This document shows positions 19,302 to 25,647 of a DNA stretch of 25,647 nucleotides, in pieces. The number at the start of each line of letters is the position of its first letter. Position 1 is the stretch's first letter. Below the pieces are notes generated by a model. That model ran no database searches. It worked only from the letters and a program-made list of their open reading frames with translations, and had not been told where the DNA came from. Origin of the DNA: Pseudomonadota bacterium (lineage in GTDB: Bacteria > Pseudomonadota > Gammaproteobacteria > Burkholderiales > Burkholderiaceae_C); the NCBI GenBank assembly GCA_039805985.1, contig JBDLSY010000105.1, positions 1 to 25,647 on the forward strand, read 5' to 3'. Position numbers and translations under genes: made by a program.

Positions 19302-19859
19302 TTAATCAACATTACTAGGTTGCCAACTTTTAGCCTTTAATGTTTGTGATTGTAAAAATTGTGTGGGTGTATAGTAATCTACTTGTGCATCATTATTCCA
19401 AGTACCCGCATAGCTTTCGCCATTAGGCCAATCAAAGATACCTTTGCCATGGCGAGTACCTTGTTTAAACTGTCCCGTATATTGATGCCCCCTTAAATTT
19501 GATGCATCACCCCATACATATACGCCTAAGCCTTCACGCAAATCATGGCTAAACTGTCCTACATAGCGATCACCTGTTTCTAGCCATTGTTGCGTTCCAT
19601 TACCGTGCTTTTCACCCTGTAAAAAATGACCTGTATAAATACTAGTCTTCCCTTTAGCAGTACCCAAACCCTGTGCCAAGCCACTGGCATCACATTCACC
19701 TACATAACGATCTTGTAGTTCAGGGTCTTTGACACTACATTGCGGTACTTTAACGCCCGCCGTACTAGCCATTTGTGCATAAGCTGTAAAACTGCTCAAA
19801 CTTATTAAGGCAGTACATAATAAATTTATGGAAAAGCGGGAAGAAAATAATGTATTCAT
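19302..19859 (-). CDS. Secreted MORN-repeat protein
   Basis: Signal peptide ending AYA; repeats YTGHFLQGEKHGNG, YVGQFSHDLREGLG, YTGQFKQGTRHGKG, YAGTWNND; N-terminal Cys pair. Confidence 0.85.
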   Translation of the reverse strand: MNTLFSSRFSINLLCTALISLSSFTAYAQMASTAGVKVPQCSVKDPELQDRYVGECDASGLAQGLGTAKGKTSIYTGHFLQGEKHGNGTQQWLETGDRYVGQFSHDLREGLGVYVWGDASNLRGHQYTGQFKQGTRHGKGIFDWPNGESYAGTWNNDAQVDYYTPTQFLQSQTLKAKSWQPSNVD

Positions 19860-19861
19860 AA

Positions 19862-19969
19862 TGTTTTATTTATATTATTGATATCGTTTATATTGTTTAT
19901 ATTGTTTATTTTATTGATATTGTTTATTTTATTTATTTTGCTTATTTTATTGATATTGTTTATTTTGTT
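19862..19969. repeat. 9-bp-period array (about 12 units, 18-bp higher-order structure) filling the whole spacer
   Basis: Plus strand units tgttttatt tatattatt gatatcgtt tatattgtt tatattgtt tattttatt gatattgtt tattttatt tattttgct tattttatt gatattgtt tattttgtt. Confidence 0.8.
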
Positions 19970-22902
19970 GGAATCGTAATTGACAAAGCATTAGTCGTTG
20001 CATTAAATAAAATTGGACTACGTTGTTTAGCCATTTGGGTCGTGTGTGCGTTATAAAACAAATTTCCCAGTGCATAGCCCATCGCTCCCCCTACGGCAAC
20101 ATCACTAAACCAATGCTGGCGAGTACCCATGCGTCCCACAGCGGTTAATAGCGGTAAAGTATATAAAATAGGTGCATCATAATGCAACGCATACGGCGTA
20201 ACCAAGGCAGTTGCCATGGCCATGTGCCTTGATGGAAAGCTACTATCACTGCGATTTTTTGTACCAAAGCTAGTATTACTTAAACCAGATAAAGGTCTCG
20301 CCCGATTCGTCAAGTATTTCAAGCTAGTCGCTGCTAGTACTGCAGCGGCTGACGATTCTAAACTGGCCAAAGCAACATGGCTACGGGCATAATTACTGCC
20401 ATCATAAGCCCATAAAGCTGATGCACCCATACCCAAAAATGTAAGACCGCTACTGATATCGTCTACTTGTTTAAAACGGCGCTGCATTGCCGAATTTTTT
20501 AATAAATGAACAACATTGCGGTTCATAGCACGGTCTGATGACGCAGTCAGTGCAGTAAAAACAGCCCCCGTTGCAAGCATATTAGGCCAGTTTACGTGTT
20601 GTATACCTTGTTGAAATGAACGAATTGCATTGTTAATTGGAGGAATAATTCCGTCGTTAATGGCAAGTGCACCTAAATGAACCTGACCATCATAATCAGC
20701 TACACCCGCAAACCGCTCTAAACCACTTTGTACACGGTTATTACGCCAATCTTCTTCTAATAAATTATATAAGTCAGCAGGATTACTAACCATTTGAGCA
20801 ATATCACGCGTCCACGGCGACAAAGCGATACTTGCTTTTTGCCTACTGTAGTTAGGCAACATACCATCAAAAGGTAAACTAATTAATAGCCCTTTATCAC
20901 GATAATTACTTGCACCTACCCCATAGTCTTTAGCATTTGTGACCGACATCCACGCACCTAATTCAGTACCCCCCCAAAAACGCCGTTTAAATTCCGCACG
21001 AACGCCTATATCTTTTGCCAAAAAACGTCCCGCACGTACAGTAAGGTTGGTTTCCATGGGCAAACGGTAATGTAATGCTGCTAAGGCAGTGGTTGTACGA
21101 TAACCGTTTAAACCAAACATAGTCTGTTCATCACGCTGTGCGACTGTATCTATACTTAAATCAACTGCCCAAGGTGATTGAGCAGGTGCATACAAAACTT
21201 GTCCACCAATACCTGCATAAGCACGTTCAAAAATACCTGCATTGACACGGCCATATACATTTTTACCTAAATGCTTAAAATGATTAACAACCGCCAAATC
21301 TAATTTAGCTTGTTTACCTATTTCATAAAATGCACTGCGCGAGCGAACTTTGTTTTGAGTGCTATTTGAAGCACCAATCCCTAATTTACTAATATTTTCG
21401 GTTAAAGTTTTATTAAAAACTACACTAGCATAAGTATTTTTATTCAGTTTAGCCTCTAACTGGGCTTCTGCTTTTACCGCATATTGTAGACCACCAGGGC
21501 CATTTAAATAACTAGATATTTTTGGAGAAAAGCTAGCATGATAACGTTTTTCACCGCCACTATCCCAAGTCAAACCTAGCGGCGTGAGTTGAAAATACGG
21601 GTCTTCTCTCCGTGGTGTTAATCCTAATTGCGGCAAAGTATATCCTCCCAATACAGCGATTTTATCGGCGGCATTAAAGGGTATTGGTTGCTCTACCGAT
21701 GTAATTGCCGCGTCAATACTATGCGGTGTAGGTGTATTTAGCTTAAAAGAAGACAATAAATTTTGTTGAGAAGATTGCCCTTCTAAATAGCTATTTAAAG
21801 CGACTAAGTCAGTAAATAGATATTCCGCTGTGGCTATATTTGTTTCGTCATTGATATAAGTAACTGCAATAGACTTAGTTTCTTGAGGGGTCGTTTTTAA
21901 TGCAATATGCACAGCATCACCGACGGCACTGCTGGCATACAGCTGGGTTGCATGGCTCAGTATTAATTGTAAACGATTAGACGCCGTGTATTTAATAGCA
22001 ATATTTTTGAAACCATAACTGTGTAATAGTCGGCGCATCGCTTCTAAATGAGCAGCGTTACTATTCCATTGTGCTGCAGTCGGCTGCTTTAAAGGAATTC
22101 TAAAACGTGGCTTTTCGTTATTTTTAGCAATAGTATCGCGTACATTATTATCAACAGTATGTTGCACTTGTATTTCTGTTGCGCCCATACGGCGAGCAAG
22201 ACGCATACTCCAAGCACTATTGTGCGGTGTGTATTCCAAACCGTAATTAATAGTACGTTGGCTACGACTTAATTTATCAAGTCCCGTTTCTTGAGCAAAT
22301 TTATCACTTAAATAATGATTAGCATCTTTTTCTAGCATTATTTTTAAGCCTGATACACTGGGTACTGTTGCTTTAATACCACCAAAAACCCCTTTGATTC
22401 GTCCCGTGCCATAGCCTACTGTGGTATCAATGGGAATATTATTCACTATAAACCGTTTACTGGCAGCCACTGCAGTACTTTTAAATAAACTAGTACCTAT
22501 TGGGTCTTGCACGATTAAAGCGGTCGCTGGTATTTGCTTAGTTTCATCAGTAAGTTTAATCCGTCCAAATAAAGTTTTATCTTTATAATCACCGTAGTTT
22601 TTCTTAAAGTCTGTGTAATTACTAGCTAAGCTATTTGGAAATCCATCTACACCCATCACCCGTATAATACCTAAACCACCTTGTAACCAAGGTAAAATAG
22701 TCGCCTGCGTTCTAAAAGTAGGGTACGGCTTTACAAATGAAAAATCATTACGCCAAGTACCGTCTTGGTCTAGTCGCCCGGTAGGCATGGCAATTAACTC
22801 GCTCTCTGCAGCAGTGCTTTTGGTACTAAATAAAAAAATTAAACTAAGTGTACAAATACTACGTGCAAATAAAAGCATAGGTGTGATGTGAAAAATAGTC
22901 AT
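19960..22902 (-). CDS. YjbH/GfcD-family outer-membrane beta-barrel fused to a C-terminal PAP2 phosphatase domain
   Basis: N-part MPTGR...PY...LPWLQ...YKDK...PIGTSLF...DTTVGYGTG and C-part FERAYAGIGGQVLY, RFLAKDIG, DKGLLISLPFD are YjbH-like; tail has K-x6-RP (KYLTNRARP), FPSRH and GRMGTRQHWFSD. ATG 22902 preferred (GCAGGT SD; 22932 lies inside a terminator hairpin). Confidence 0.85.
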   Translation of the reverse strand: MTIFHITPMLLFARSICTLSLIFLFSTKSTAAESELIAMPTGRLDQDGTWRNDFSFVKPYPTFRTQATILPWLQGGLGIIRVMGVDGFPNSLASNYTDFKKNYGDYKDKTLFGRIKLTDETKQIPATALIVQDPIGTSLFKSTAVAASKRFIVNNIPIDTTVGYGTGRIKGVFGGIKATVPSVSGLKIMLEKDANHYLSDKFAQETGLDKLSRSQRTINYGLEYTPHNSAWSMRLARRMGATEIQVQHTVDNNVRDTIAKNNEKPRFRIPLKQPTAAQWNSNAAHLEAMRRLLHSYGFKNIAIKYTASNRLQLILSHATQLYASSAVGDAVHIALKTTPQETKSIAVTYINDETNIATAEYLFTDLVALNSYLEGQSSQQNLLSSFKLNTPTPHSIDAAITSVEQPIPFNAADKIAVLGGYTLPQLGLTPRREDPYFQLTPLGLTWDSGGEKRYHASFSPKISSYLNGPGGLQYAVKAEAQLEAKLNKNTYASVVFNKTLTENISKLGIGASNSTQNKVRSRSAFYEIGKQAKLDLAVVNHFKHLGKNVYGRVNAGIFERAYAGIGGQVLYAPAQSPWAVDLSIDTVAQRDEQTMFGLNGYRTTTALAALHYRLPMETNLTVRAGRFLAKDIGVRAEFKRRFWGGTELGAWMSVTNAKDYGVGASNYRDKGLLISLPFDGMLPNYSRQKASIALSPWTRDIAQMVSNPADLYNLLEEDWRNNRVQSGLERFAGVADYDGQVHLGALAINDGIIPPINNAIRSFQQGIQHVNWPNMLATGAVFTALTASSDRAMNRNVVHLLKNSAMQRRFKQVDDISSGLTFLGMGASALWAYDGSNYARSHVALASLESSAAAVLAATSLKYLTNRARPLSGLSNTSFGTKNRSDSSFPSRHMAMATALVTPYALHYDAPILYTLPLLTAVGRMGTRQHWFSDVAVGGAMGYALGNLFYNAHTTQMAKQRSPILFNATTNALSITIPTK

Positions 22903-22916
22903 GAAATACCTGCAAA

Positions 22917-22949
22917 AAAAGAGCCTTATCATTAGATTAAGGCTCTTTT
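22917..22949 (-). terminator. Intrinsic terminator between repeat-protein gene and YjbH-PAP2 gene
   Basis: AAAAGAGCCTTA-tcattagat-TAAGGCTCTTTT; on the minus strand followed by T7. Confidence 0.8.
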
Positions 22950-23020
22950 AACAAAAATTAGTAATGTTTTATTGATAGCTATATAAATTAGTTTACCAAA
23001 CTATCATTAATCAATATTGA

Positions 23021-23530
23021 TTAATGGTTACTAGCAGTATGACTACTAGTAGTCTTAGTGGCAGTTATAATTGCACCCGTAATTACAGCACCGACAATAC
23101 CGTAACCTACCCATTTAGCAGCAGGTGATACTGCTGAAATAGTCGGTAATGAAGCCATTGAATTTACAGCATTATAACCACGTGATACAGTGCTAAAAGT
23201 TTGTTGGGGGATATTTTGAACCGCAACGTTATTACCTATCATGTTTTGACCCATCATATTTTGACCTGTCATGTTTTGACCCATCATATTTTGACCTGTC
23301 ATGTTTTGACCCATCATATTTTGACCTGTCATGTTTTGACCTGTCATGTTTTGACCTGTCATGTTTTGACCTGTCATGTTTTGACCTGTCATGTTTTGAC
23401 CTGTTGTATTTTGACCAAACATATTTTGTGATGTACCTGATCTTGATTTATTAGAATGATTATCAGCAGATACATAAACTGGACTAGCAACGATAGCGGT
23501 GGCTAAAATAGTGGCGACGATTTTTTTCAT
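23021..23530 (-). CDS. Small secreted protein with GQNM(T/M) pentapeptide repeats, YjbE/GfcA-like position and architecture
   Basis: AGGAG SD; signal peptide MKKIVATILATAIVASPVYVSA; 12 GQNxx units; C-terminal hydrophobic segment WVGYGIVGAVITGAIITAT then Thr/Ser tail. Confidence 0.85.
   Translation of the reverse strand: MKKIVATILATAIVASPVYVSADNHSNKSRSGTSQNMFGQNTTGQNMTGQNMTGQNMTGQNMTGQNMTGQNMMGQNMTGQNMMGQNMTGQNMMGQNMIGNNVAVQNIPQQTFSTVSRGYNAVNSMASLPTISAVSPAAKWVGYGIVGAVITGAIITATKTTSSHTASNH
23237..23431 (-). repeat. 15-bp tandem array, 12 GQN units plus one degenerate unit
   Basis: Plus strand TGTCATGTTTTGACC / CATCATATTTTGACC units from 23237 to 23416; SQNMF unit 23417-23431. Confidence 0.95.
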
Positions 23531-23593
23531 GAATAGCTCCTAGGATTAAAGATATACTTATTAAGTGATTGGTTGTTGATTATTAAACTATTA

Positions 23594-23622
23594 AGTATGA
23601 ACGGTAATAATTTATCGCACAA
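23594..23622 (-). promoter_or_regulatory. Possible sigma70 promoter of the repeat-protein gene
   Basis: Minus strand TTGTGC (23622-23617), 17-bp spacer, CATACT (23599-23594); weak match in AT-rich DNA. Confidence 0.3.
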
Positions 23623-23669
23623 ACTCTTAATATTTTACACGTTTAAGCCCTAAATTACGAATAAATTTA

Positions 23670-24845
23670 TTACTGTAACCATTGTTTGCGTGTTTTTAAC
23701 AACACTATAGCTATAGCAAACAATAAACTGAATAAACTACCCGCTAATATTAAAAGTGTACGGTTCGGGCGTGACGGTAACTCTGGCACAATAGCCTCAT
23801 CAATCAGCTGTAGGCTGGCTGTATCACGCGATTCATCTAAACGGGCAAACTCAAATTGTTTAGCCAGTAATTCAAATACAGTTTCAGCATATTTTAAATC
23901 GCGTAAACGCCGCGCATAGTCCATACCTGAATCAGTTAATTTTTTATTATTGCCTAAATGCGTGGTTTGGTTAGCATCACCTGTTTGCGAACGCTCTAGT
24001 TTATTGGATTCATTACGTAATGCTGTCATTTCAATGACTTTACGTTGATAGTCTGGATTTTCGGTGGTTGCATATTGTCGTAAAGAAGCCAGTTCAACTT
24101 CTTTTGCAGAAATAGCTGCACGTATTTTTGCTATGGCTTCAATGGCAACCTTTCCTTGAGTATCTAATTGTAAAAGACCCGTTGTTTGCTGCATCATTTT
24201 AAATGCTTCTTCAGCGTCTGTTAATTGATTTTTAGCTTGTTTTAATTGCGTTTCAAAAAAGAAACGCCGTTGTCCTGCTTCAGTTATCGCCATACGTTGC
24301 ATCATACCTTGCAGTGCATAAAAATATTCATTGGCTATAGCTGCCGCCAATCTAGGGTCTTGGTCTTCTACGTCAATGTTGATAATGCCATCTTTCCCTG
24401 CAACTACCTTTGTTAAGCTGGCAAGTTGCAGTCTAGTATTTTGTGCTGTCTTAATTTTATAAGCTTCTTTTAATGAAAATTTAGCAATCACGTGGTCACT
24501 AATAGAGCGGCTTTTTAATAAACCTACATACAAATCACCTGGCGTTTTAATTCCCAGCATAGTAGCTGCACCGCCAGCCCCCCCTAATGCCCCCAGTATG
24601 GCAGCTTGTCCAGAACCTGAACCACTGGTAGGCGGCATAACGCGTATTTGTGCATTAAAATACTTGGGCTGTAAAAAAGCGACAATGACTGCGGCAACAA
24701 TGCCTATTGTTGAAATAATCAGTAACCAAAGTTTGTGCGTCAGTAATGCGGTAATAATGGCTGATATATTAATCGGCATCTCATCATCATAAGCAGTTGA
24801 ATGTGTATTTAACGCATTATTCAAGTTAGGATTGATAGTTTGCAT
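23670..24845 (-). CDS. Polysaccharide co-polymerase / chain-length determinant (Wzz/Wzc-N-like, no kinase domain)
   Basis: Two TM helices flanking a coiled-coil periplasmic region; LLKSRSI, QFEFARLDE, IDEAIVPELPSRPNR before TM2. Confidence 0.88.
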   Translation of the reverse strand: MQTINPNLNNALNTHSTAYDDEMPINISAIITALLTHKLWLLIISTIGIVAAVIVAFLQPKYFNAQIRVMPPTSGSGSGQAAILGALGGAGGAATMLGIKTPGDLYVGLLKSRSISDHVIAKFSLKEAYKIKTAQNTRLQLASLTKVVAGKDGIINIDVEDQDPRLAAAIANEYFYALQGMMQRMAITEAGQRRFFFETQLKQAKNQLTDAEEAFKMMQQTTGLLQLDTQGKVAIEAIAKIRAAISAKEVELASLRQYATTENPDYQRKVIEMTALRNESNKLERSQTGDANQTTHLGNNKKLTDSGMDYARRLRDLKYAETVFELLAKQFEFARLDESRDTASLQLIDEAIVPELPSRPNRTLLILAGSLFSLLFAIAIVLLKTRKQWLQ

Positions 24846-25647
24846 CAGTAAATTCCCAATACTTTTAAGCTAGCGACACCCAAAGAAAACTGTGAAAATA
24901 TACTAGCCCAGTTTTTATAGTTATTTAGTGTGTCAAAACGACGAATGTTTTCTGGTACGATAATCGCATCACCAGGATGTAATACAACTTCAGAACCCAA
25001 CCAACCTAACCAACCATTAGTTTTACGAGTGATACTGCCATTGGCACGCAATACATAAATATTGTCAGCATCAGCACTGGCTGTTAAATCACCGGCTTGA
25101 GATAAGTATTGCTTTAGAGACTTATTAGCGACATGCAGTACCGTATTTTCATTATGAACCGCTCCCACAATTGACACGGTAGCTTGTTGTGGTGGAATGT
25201 ATAACGTGTCACCATCTTCAACCGCAATATCAGGCACATCACTCAAATAAGCAGTCGGTGGTATATCCATCGCAATACGACCCGAAGCTTTGACGCTTTT
25301 TAATTGGTTTAAAAACTGTTGCGATGCTTGGACAGACTGTGCTTGTTGCGCTGCATTTTCCGAGCTAGTTGCCCGGGTAAGTGACTGTAAATTCAAATCG
25401 CGCTCTAGTTTTTCTAAAGTAGAATCCATCGCTTTTTGCTGATTAGATTGCACCGTTTTTCGCGTTAATACAGCACCGTATACATAGGCTTTGTCAGTTA
25501 ATCCGCCTACACGTTGTACCAACTGTAACAGTGTTTCATTGGGCAATGCTTGATAAACACCGCCCGCATTAAATTCACCTTCCAATTTAACGGTACGCGT
25601 TAGTTTTGATTGTGCAATGCGTAAATCACGGTTACTAAACACACTAA
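24845..25647 (-). CDS. SLBB-domain polysaccharide export protein (Wza/OtnA/KpsD-like), C-terminal part; starts beyond the right edge
   Basis: VKLEGEFNAGGVY...TLLQLVQRVGGLT, VEDGDTLYIP, VSIVGAV, YLSQAGD, IYVLRANG, LHPGDAIIVP; frame open to window end; TGATG overlap with the Wzz-like gene. Confidence 0.88.
   Translation of the reverse strand, partial: SVFSNRDLRIAQSKLTRTVKLEGEFNAGGVYQALPNETLLQLVQRVGGLTDKAYVYGAVLTRKTVQSNQQKAMDSTLEKLERDLNLQSLTRATSSENAAQQAQSVQASQQFLNQLKSVKASGRIAMDIPPTAYLSDVPDIAVEDGDTLYIPPQQATVSIVGAVHNENTVLHVANKSLKQYLSQAGDLTASADADNIYVLRANGSITRKTNGWLGWLGSEVVLHPGDAIIVPENIRRFDTLNNYKNWASIFSQFSLGVASLKVLGIY

Follow-up and report, generated by a model that had tools for sequence, protein, structure and literature searches.

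The stretch of DNA analysed here, referred to as the window, comprises 25,647 nucleotides of a contig from a member of the Burkholderiales, and it carries at positions 23021-23530, on the minus strand, the gene of a small exported protein whose open reading frame (ORF) translates into 169 amino acids. This gene lies 142 nucleotides upstream of, and on the same strand as, a gene that fuses a YjbH double barrel to a PAP2 domain (yjbH::PAP2), and its product is probably (at about 60%) a Sec-exported envelope protein of the YjbE/GfcA type which is made in excess and whose disordered, uncharged middle part has recently expanded. The assignment to the YjbE/GfcA type is based on position and architecture, because sequence homology could not be shown, and we infer the protein's location in the cell, its partnership with YjbH and its role in polysaccharide export or anchoring. 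What is new is the occurrence of a Gln/Asn/Met pentapeptide repeat in a YjbE/GfcA-like protein, a conserved terminator that implies an excess of the small protein, and the apparent tendency of a C-terminal module of helix and tail, rather than of the protein body, to track YjbH. The finding itself is modest: an earlier note on this DNA, which saw here the best candidate for an undescribed system, overstated the case, since what is found here is one form of the known, uncharacterized Yjb/Gfc module, without YjbF and YjbG.

Coding evidence, conserved parts and expression of the small gene

The gene at 23021-23530 is a real coding gene, because synonymous changes dominate among its relatives, its ribosome-binding site and terminator are conserved, and the transcript of a relative is deep. 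A search of 5.8 billion clustered proteins returned just four homologues of the small protein. Residues 1-25 are identical in 5 of 5 homologues despite a DNA identity of just 88-92% over the first 99 nucleotides, and between the window gene and its most distant relative codons 1-33 show nine synonymous and three non-synonymous differences. The Shine-Dalgarno sequence AGGAG, read from the sequence at 23537..23541 on the minus strand, six nucleotides ahead of the ATG, does not differ among four genus members, and the remainder of the spacer averages 75% identity.

The layout of the protein, all of it encoded on the minus strand, begins with a Sec-type signal peptide at residues 1-22 (MKKIVATILATAIVASPVYVSA; 23465..23530), recognized by inspection and hydropathy from its KK, its hydrophobic core (Kyte-Doolittle mean of the h-region 2.62) and a VSA followed by D, with cleavage expected after VSA. 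Since the protein has no Cys, it is not a lipoprotein. The mature region is of low complexity, dominated by N, G, T, Q and M, and consists of a short polar stretch, the pentapeptide array (residues 34-103; 23222..23431), a non-repeat linker at residues 104-139 (VQN..QQ...SRGY..VNSMASLP..VSP..K; 23114..23221) in which many columns are invariant across five homologues, a Gly-rich hydrophobic helix at residues 140-158 (WVGYGIVGAVITGAIITAT; 23057..23113) indicated by hydropathy (19-residue Kyte-Doolittle mean 1.58) and by AlphaFold2, and a Ser/Thr tail, KTTSSHTASNH, which together with the stop codon occupies 23021..23056; endings of the form ..TATKTTSNH or ..KTTSNH are seen in this genus. From the alignment, the conserved parts of the protein appear to be its signal peptide, linker, Gly-rich helix and Ser/Thr tail. 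The features that the earlier note had read from this gene, namely the signal peptide, the repeat array with its 15-bp and 30-bp units and its lack of charge, the hydrophobic helix and the Thr/Ser tail, are all present where it had placed them.

An AlphaFold2 model built from a five-sequence alignment has a mean predicted local distance difference test score (pLDDT) of 44 and contains helices at residues 5-14, within the signal peptide, and at residues 138-161, and nowhere else. Residues 15-137 have no secondary structure (pLDDT 37-43), and the array is modelled as coil at pLDDT 37-41, a verdict limited by the shallowness of the alignment. The array is thus predicted to be a disordered, flexible spacer.

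The small gene is separated from yjbH::PAP2 by an intrinsic terminator at 22914..22949 on the minus strand, a stem formed by AGAGCCUUA and UAAGGCUCU and followed by U7, which was identified by RNA folding and alignment. The 131-nucleotide spacer at 22895-23025 folds with -32.4 kcal/mol (z = -5.0), a stability reached by 0 of 200 shuffled sequences, and the stem does not vary among four genus members, which differ here only in a single base of the loop and in how long the U run is. A simple consensus terminator scanner made no call at the position where the fold and the alignment show the hairpin.

The available RNA comes from a freshwater metatranscriptome in which a 597-nucleotide contig of a relative about 91% identical to the window covers 23273-23786 at depth 145, unitigs of the repeat reach depths of 266-652, and the adjoining part of yjbH has depth 6. 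The 5' part of the small gene and its upstream spacer are therefore covered at an indicative ratio of about 24-fold over the yjbH part (145 versus 6) in the relative's transcript. This excess fits a terminator that permits an excess of the small protein over the barrel, and the small gene appears to be abundantly transcribed, as the earlier note had supposed of an abundant product.

The pentapeptide array and its possible roles

The array comprises 13-14 units and reads SQNMF-GQNTT-(GQNMT)5-(GQNMM-GQNMT)2-GQNMM-GQNMI-GNNVA. It is an in-frame variable-number repeat built from exact 15-bp and 30-bp DNA repeats: the same 15-mer (GGTCAAAACATGACA) encodes each of the five units 3-7, a 30-bp higher-order unit recurs 2.5 times without a change across units 8-12, and Tandem Repeats Finder reports a repeat of period 15 at 23234-23416 with 12.2 copies, 88% matches and a score of 275. 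This repetitiveness of the DNA is far beyond chance. In the protein, residues 34-108 are free of D, E, K and R and are composed chiefly of N (16 of the 75 residues), M (15), Q (14), G (13) and T (9), the Met residues being regularly spaced as M-x4-M and MM.

The number of units differs widely among homologues, from 13 as assembled in the window to about 7 in a relative of 145 amino acids, 2 in each of two relatives of 109 amino acids and 0-1 in one of 99 amino acids, and the flanks of the repeat align well on both sides across these differences. The relatives thus differ by whole units, which bears out the earlier suggestion of a variable length. Because its unit types stand in an order different from that of the window array, the array of the relative with about 7 units arose or was reshuffled independently. 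The orthologues contain few Met residues, and Thr substitutes for Met in many of their units (GQNTT). Sequence comparison therefore marks the GQNM[T/M] array as a recent, length-variable in-frame expansion and not as a conserved feature of the family, and, because its DNA units are exact copies, its origin would be very recent.

The assembled number of units is itself uncertain. The number was checked against k=31 contigs of sequencing runs, which are too short to span the array; in the probable source run they end at 23268 and restart at 23375, and so break inside it. Unitigs of the repeat in this run have depths of 2.0-6.9 times those of the flanks, against multiplicities of 1-4 expected from the assembly, so that their depth is 1.4-2.0 times (about 1.6 times overall) that expected from the assembled multiplicities. 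Summed over the repeat words, the depth corresponds to about 215 positions compared with the 136 assembled, or about 18 units, unless co-occurring strains contribute; word depth thus suggests about 18 units rather than 13. A minor variant unitig at 23234-23416 (depth 3.6, two mismatches) was also seen, which hints at assembly collapse or at heterogeneity of unit number in the population.

The evidence bears on several explanations of what the array is for. The earlier note took the protein as a candidate functional amyloid or beta-solenoid. On this reading its Gln/Asn/Gly repeats would stack into a fibre, either cross-beta or a quadrilateral beta-helix, for which the FapF-like N-terminal barrel of YjbH would be the way out of the cell. 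The composition (about 40% Gln/Asn in an uncharged tract of roughly 70 residues) would suit such a fibre, and the terminator after the gene and the approximately 24-fold deeper RNA recall the expression of a major structural subunit, but the array is modelled as coil at a pLDDT of about 40 without strands, and the orthologues mostly hold just 0-2 units, which means that the array cannot be the conserved function of the family. A disordered repeat missing from orthologues, which that note had itself set against its proposal, is largely what was found. For a solenoid in particular, weak NCBIfam matches (E 4.5e-6) to PipB and PipB2, in their pentapeptide-repeat regions, might be cited, but their scores of 26 and 22 bits lie so far below the cut-offs of 274 and 354 that they reflect the five-residue periodicity alone, and the inward-facing i-2 position is occupied by Gln rather than by a small residue. 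Pfam returned no curlin, Fap or pentapeptide-repeat model, and indeed no family of any kind, for the small protein at an E-value of 0.01 or better. When the AlphaFold2 model of YjbH::PAP2 was compared with 48,161 solved chains by VIA-align (wide), FapF (5O65; Z 15.6) was among the top three matches of the 12-stranded N-terminal barrel, in agreement with the literature, which places this barrel of YjbH/GfcD in the FapF family (PMC8346858, PMC9603273), but the COG4313 channel (Z 16.3) and KdgM (Z 15.9) match it as well as FapF does, so that the fold indicates a 12-stranded barrel and no more. The locus contains no nucleator or chaperone genes and no csg or fap genes. An amyloid or solenoid is, on balance, improbable.

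A further explanation, also unlikely, is that the array is a functionless product of slippage, its length perhaps mis-assembled, in an ordinary small envelope gene. In its favour, the DNA copies are exact and so must be very recent, 0-2 units suffice in close relatives, the k=31 contigs break in the array, and word depth points to another copy number; however, two relatives that expanded independently (to 13 and about 7 units, in differing orders) have both retained the reading frame and the uncharged composition, and words of the repeat are found in several freshwater samples. This explanation also overlaps that of a YjbE/GfcA-type protein with an expanded middle, in which the array is already a dispensable spacer. 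It is highly improbable, finally, that the protein is a periplasmic Met-rich factor that binds Cu(I)/Ag(I) or scavenges oxidants, as the earlier note had also considered. The 15 Met among 75 residues, in regular M-x4-M and MM spacing, would be suitable for the purpose, but Met dwindles to a few residues in the orthologues, where Thr replaces it in many units, and neither the window nor the relatives' loci have adjoining cop, cus or msr genes, the conserved neighbours being those of polysaccharide export. Copper binding was accordingly rejected, having neither conservation nor genomic context in its favour.

Position beside YjbH, distant loci and proposed role

The assignment of the small protein to the YjbE/GfcA type draws on its genomic position, which the earlier note had recognized and which is the same for every homologue: linkage to yjbH homologues held in all four homologue contexts, with the small gene directly ahead of a YjbH::PAP2 gene (988-989 amino acids) in each contig. 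Wherever the contigs reach, wza and wzz precede the small gene and a MORN gene follows yjbH::PAP2, and the longest contig carries an initiating sugar-phosphate transferase and a Polysacc_synt_2 dehydratase further upstream.

The assignment also draws on architecture, for which 14 YjbH loci were examined in other families within this order and class. In 13 of these loci there is, beside or near yjbH, a gene whose product combines a signal peptide and a variable body with a Gly/Ala-rich helix and a Ser/Thr tail, and in 11 of the 13 this gene lies directly upstream of yjbH or overlaps it. The bodies are Gly/Ala-rich, Ala/Pro-rich, Thr/Asp-rich, Glu/Pro-rich or bear a FecR domain; the helices, with Kyte-Doolittle values of 1.56-2.5, are followed by a short Ser/Thr/Gly tail, and ten of the 13 proteins end in His (..SSTSNH, ..SSTTNH, ..TTTTTHH). 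All of these proteins are unannotated. The combination of helix and Ser/Thr-His tail looks like a C-terminal anchoring or sorting module with interchangeable passengers.

Some individual members of this set deserve description. In loci L028 (6256-7068) and L029 (4603-5367) the Gly/Ala helix and Ser/Thr-His tail stand behind a FecR domain (Pfam E 4e-14 and 2e-11), in L041 (4853-5461) and L039 (3575-4267) the helix and tail stand behind a folded passenger with weak DUF7354 matches, and in L042 (77-670) the Gly/Ala helix and Ser/Thr-His tail likewise follow a folded passenger. The YjbH-adjacent protein of L037 (3790-4392) continues after its helix with an acidic patch, Thr/Pro/Val repeats of the TPTVTP type and a run of 13 Thr, and ends ..SGTR; a tail so long and so acidic argues against a simple cytoplasmic tail in this member.

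Several results weigh against the interpretation of the small protein as an abundant YjbE/GfcA-type envelope protein. Homology to YjbE, to GfcA or to the distant YjbH-linked proteins has no statistical support: a HMMER profile search of 1.84 billion representative proteins found the genus cluster and one fragment and nothing beyond the genus, and searches of Pfam and NCBIfam at E-values up to 10 with the small protein, its non-repeat C-terminal part and six distant analogues gave no match to YjbE (PF11106) and none to a C-terminal sorting-domain family. PF11106 is a narrow model, which detects E. coli YjbE at 5e-33 and does not match the accepted paralogue GfcA. Against a hidden Markov model (HMM) built from the distant C-terminal modules the window protein reaches 2.1 bits (E 27) and ranks 50th among 3052 ORFs, and hhalign gives a probability of 2% for the genus family against these modules, so the resemblance is one of layout and of the terminal [ST][ST]NH alone. 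The partners YjbF/GfcB (PF11102) and YjbG/GfcC (PF06251) were not found in three genomes, G000 (58% complete), G001 (95%) and G002 (100%), by searches that did detect E. coli among the control genomes. The helix WVGYGIVGAVITGAIITAT is only marginally hydrophobic, which leaves membrane anchoring uncertain. The RNA evidence, lastly, consists of assembled contigs of one run and comes from a relative, and the 597-nucleotide contig also takes in the spacer and the 3' end of wzz, so that its depth is an average. Outside these searches, look-alikes in the ESM Atlas fall into clusters of small proteins without names, one of which, ranked 76th, carries PF11106 in 16% of the proteins it groups, a weak lead.

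If the protein is nonetheless of the YjbE/GfcA type, its working can be pictured as follows. The signal peptide would be cut after VSA, and the C-terminal Gly-rich helix would hold the protein in a membrane or dock onto the double barrel of YjbH::PAP2, with the Ser/Thr tail as its conserved functional end. The uncharged Gln/Asn/Met/Gly/Thr middle would remain disordered and flexible and act as a passenger or spacer, either in the periplasm or at the surface. The array would have grown by replication slippage or unequal recombination of the 15-bp and 30-bp units from a motif present at 0-2 units in relatives; it would alter the length of the spacer, build no folded solenoid and be dispensable for the core function of the family. 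The conserved terminator after the small gene would, finally, lead to a large excess of the small protein over the barrel.

The literature on the E. coli modules provides a setting for such a role. All gfc genes are needed for the group 4 capsule, and GfcA is described as short, natively unstructured, "entirely uncharacterized" and possibly located in the inner membrane or secreted; in a speculation by Larson et al., O-antigen might modify its Ser/Thr residues and GfcD might export it (PMC8592465, PMC8346858, PMC11494523, PMC13621845). The anchor of the group 4 capsule is still unknown, and GfcA/YjbE is required for the group 4 capsule and for exopolysaccharide (PMC11494523, PMC13621845). A far bolder scheme, for which the odds are long, would make the small proteins linked to YjbH/GfcD a single class of cargo with two hallmarks, a Gly-zipper helix at the C-terminus and a Ser/Thr tail (His-ended in these betaproteobacteria), and this class would provide the protein anchor or primer for capsules of the group-4 type. 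Glycan would be transferred to the tail, perhaps by phosphotransfer from an undecaprenyl-diphosphate-linked sugar through the fused PAP2 domain, the polypeptide would be threaded out through the FapF-like N-terminal barrel, and the passenger in this genus would be a slippage-variable and possibly self-associating Gln/Asn/Met fibre.

Taken together, the window locus and the 13 distant loci suggest that what travels with YjbH-type barrels is the signal peptide together with the Gly-rich helix and Ser/Thr tail, while the body can be almost anything, which points experiments at the C-terminal module and not at the low-complexity body. The stripped-down locus of this genus, which lacks YjbF and YjbG, has PAP2 fused to its barrel and would have its excess of small protein set by a terminator, offers a simpler system in which to ask whether the small protein is cargo, anchor or tether.

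The surrounding locus and comparison with known systems

The genes of the locus follow one another on the minus strand in the order wza, wzz/GNVR, small gene, yjbH::PAP2, MORN. The Wza-type (SLBB) polysaccharide exporter gene is represented by its 3' part at 24845..25647 (Pfam SLBB and SLBB_2), truncated at the end of the window; the complete gene in relatives encodes 815 amino acids and additionally carries Poly_export. The polysaccharide co-polymerase-like gene at 23670..24845 has Wzz (1.1e-8) and GNVR (1.5e-8) domains in Pfam and no kinase domain. The yjbH::PAP2 gene occupies 19960..22878 (Pfam YjbH 3.3e-104, PAP2 3.6e-14), or starts at 22932 if the longest ORF is taken, and downstream of it a MORN-repeat protein with a signal peptide is encoded at 19302..19859 (Pfam MORN 4.5e-17). 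The ATG at 22932 falls in the loop of the conserved terminator hairpin, and relatives carry indels of 2 and 1 nucleotides just downstream of it; because of these indels the stretch is taken as non-coding and the start is probably the ATG at 22878, which gives MLLFARSICTL..., a signal peptide. The sequencing runs that hold the window are freshwater metagenomes. Genomes of the genus are about 1.7 Mb in size, the window has 39% G+C, and the best matches of its BioA, at about 70% identity, are to Comamonadaceae.

The AlphaFold2 model of YjbH::PAP2 has a pLDDT of 62. In the structural comparison described above, its C-terminal barrel resembles the exopolysaccharide porins PelBC (Z 12.6), PgaA (11.8) and BcsC (11.4), and its PAP2 domain resembles the integral-membrane lipid phosphatases LpxE (10.9) and PgpB (9.7), and also G6PC1 and LPP1. 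Foldseek against the Protein Data Bank (PDB) with the whole model returned generic large barrels with poor template-modelling scores, and a YjbH profile gave no match among PDB sequences at an E-value of 1 or better. Complex prediction of the mature small protein with the two YjbH barrels gave a score of 0.00, with a pLDDT of 24-25 for the partner, a result that speaks neither for nor against a complex. The PAP2 domain, which is unlike soluble acid phosphatases and which is modelled with low confidence (pLDDT 23-67), raises a question of topology, namely whether a helical membrane domain is attached to an outer-membrane beta-barrel.

YjbH::PAP2 fusions of 940-960 amino acids, 34-35% identical to that of the window, occur in L027 (6729-9548), L029 (1660-4512) and L038 (2270-5149), and since these loci represent three other families the fusion is old or recurrent. 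A secreted MORN protein with the motif C-x-V-x-DP-E-L/I-Q-x-x-Y-x-G-x-C follows yjbH in the window (19302-19859), in L027 (9556-10314) and in L031 (4267-4986), an arrangement thus seen in this genus and in two other families; the MORN protein may be an unrecognized partner of YjbH-type barrels.

Comparison with known systems places the small protein more precisely. It shares with FapC of Pseudomonas, which is accompanied by FapF, and with the curli protein CsgA the property of being secreted with Gln/Asn/Gly-rich imperfect repeats, and the neighbouring barrel is, like FapF, 12-stranded (PMC8346858); unlike the units of FapC and CsgA, which span about 20-40 residues, those of the window have five residues, are unconserved and are predicted to be coil, and there is neither a family match nor a set of accessory genes. 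With the pentapeptide-repeat proteins (the PF00805 clan, including PipB2, Qnr and MfpA) it has in common a tandem five-residue periodicity in which i-1 is Asn, i is a hydrophobic residue (here Met) and i+2 is Gly, but it departs from their A(D/N)LXX pattern, with its small residue at i-2, in having Gln at that position, it has no Pfam match and no modelled beta-helix, and the units of its relatives are too few for a single beta-helix coil. Length-variable, low-complexity envelope proteins are also known from Neisseria, where H.8/Lip and Laz contain AAEAP pentapeptide repeats. As in the window, short in-frame DNA repeats there give rise to a disordered spacer whose copy number differs between close strains; the composition is different, however, the window array being an uncharged one of Gln/Asn/Met, and the Neisseria proteins have an N-terminal lipid in place of a C-terminal helix.

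The proteins of the distant YjbH loci (L027-L031 and L036-L044, from other Burkholderiales and gammaproteobacterial families) share the position and layout of the window protein. Their tails (..GGGSSTSNH, ..SSTTNH, ..TTTTTHH) come near the ..TATKTTSNH of the genus, and several of them accompany a YjbH::PAP2 fusion and a MORN gene, but their C-terminal module, which in the betaproteobacterial proteins reads ..IGAG..GGGSSTxH, forms a detectable family (E 1e-7 to 1e-17 for its members with their own HMM) outside which the window protein falls. The E. coli proteins GfcA (YmcD, 101 amino acids; gfcABCDE-etp-etk) and YjbE (80 amino acids, PF11106; yjbEFGH), encoded by the first genes of their modules, differ from the window protein in having a Thr/Gly/Ala/Ser-rich body where it has Gln/Asn/Met pentapeptides and a tail that ends in Asn-His; sequence similarity is not detectable, and the genus is without YjbF/GfcB and YjbG/GfcC, has PAP2 fused to the barrel and has a MORN gene after it. 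What the window protein shares with GfcA and YjbE is a signal peptide, a low-complexity body predicted to be disordered, a hydrophobic stretch rich in Gly, Ala and Val and a Ser/Thr-rich tail, which in the two E. coli proteins is Thr-rich. In each case the small gene belongs to a polysaccharide-export locus and precedes, on the same strand, the gene of a YjbH/GfcD double barrel.

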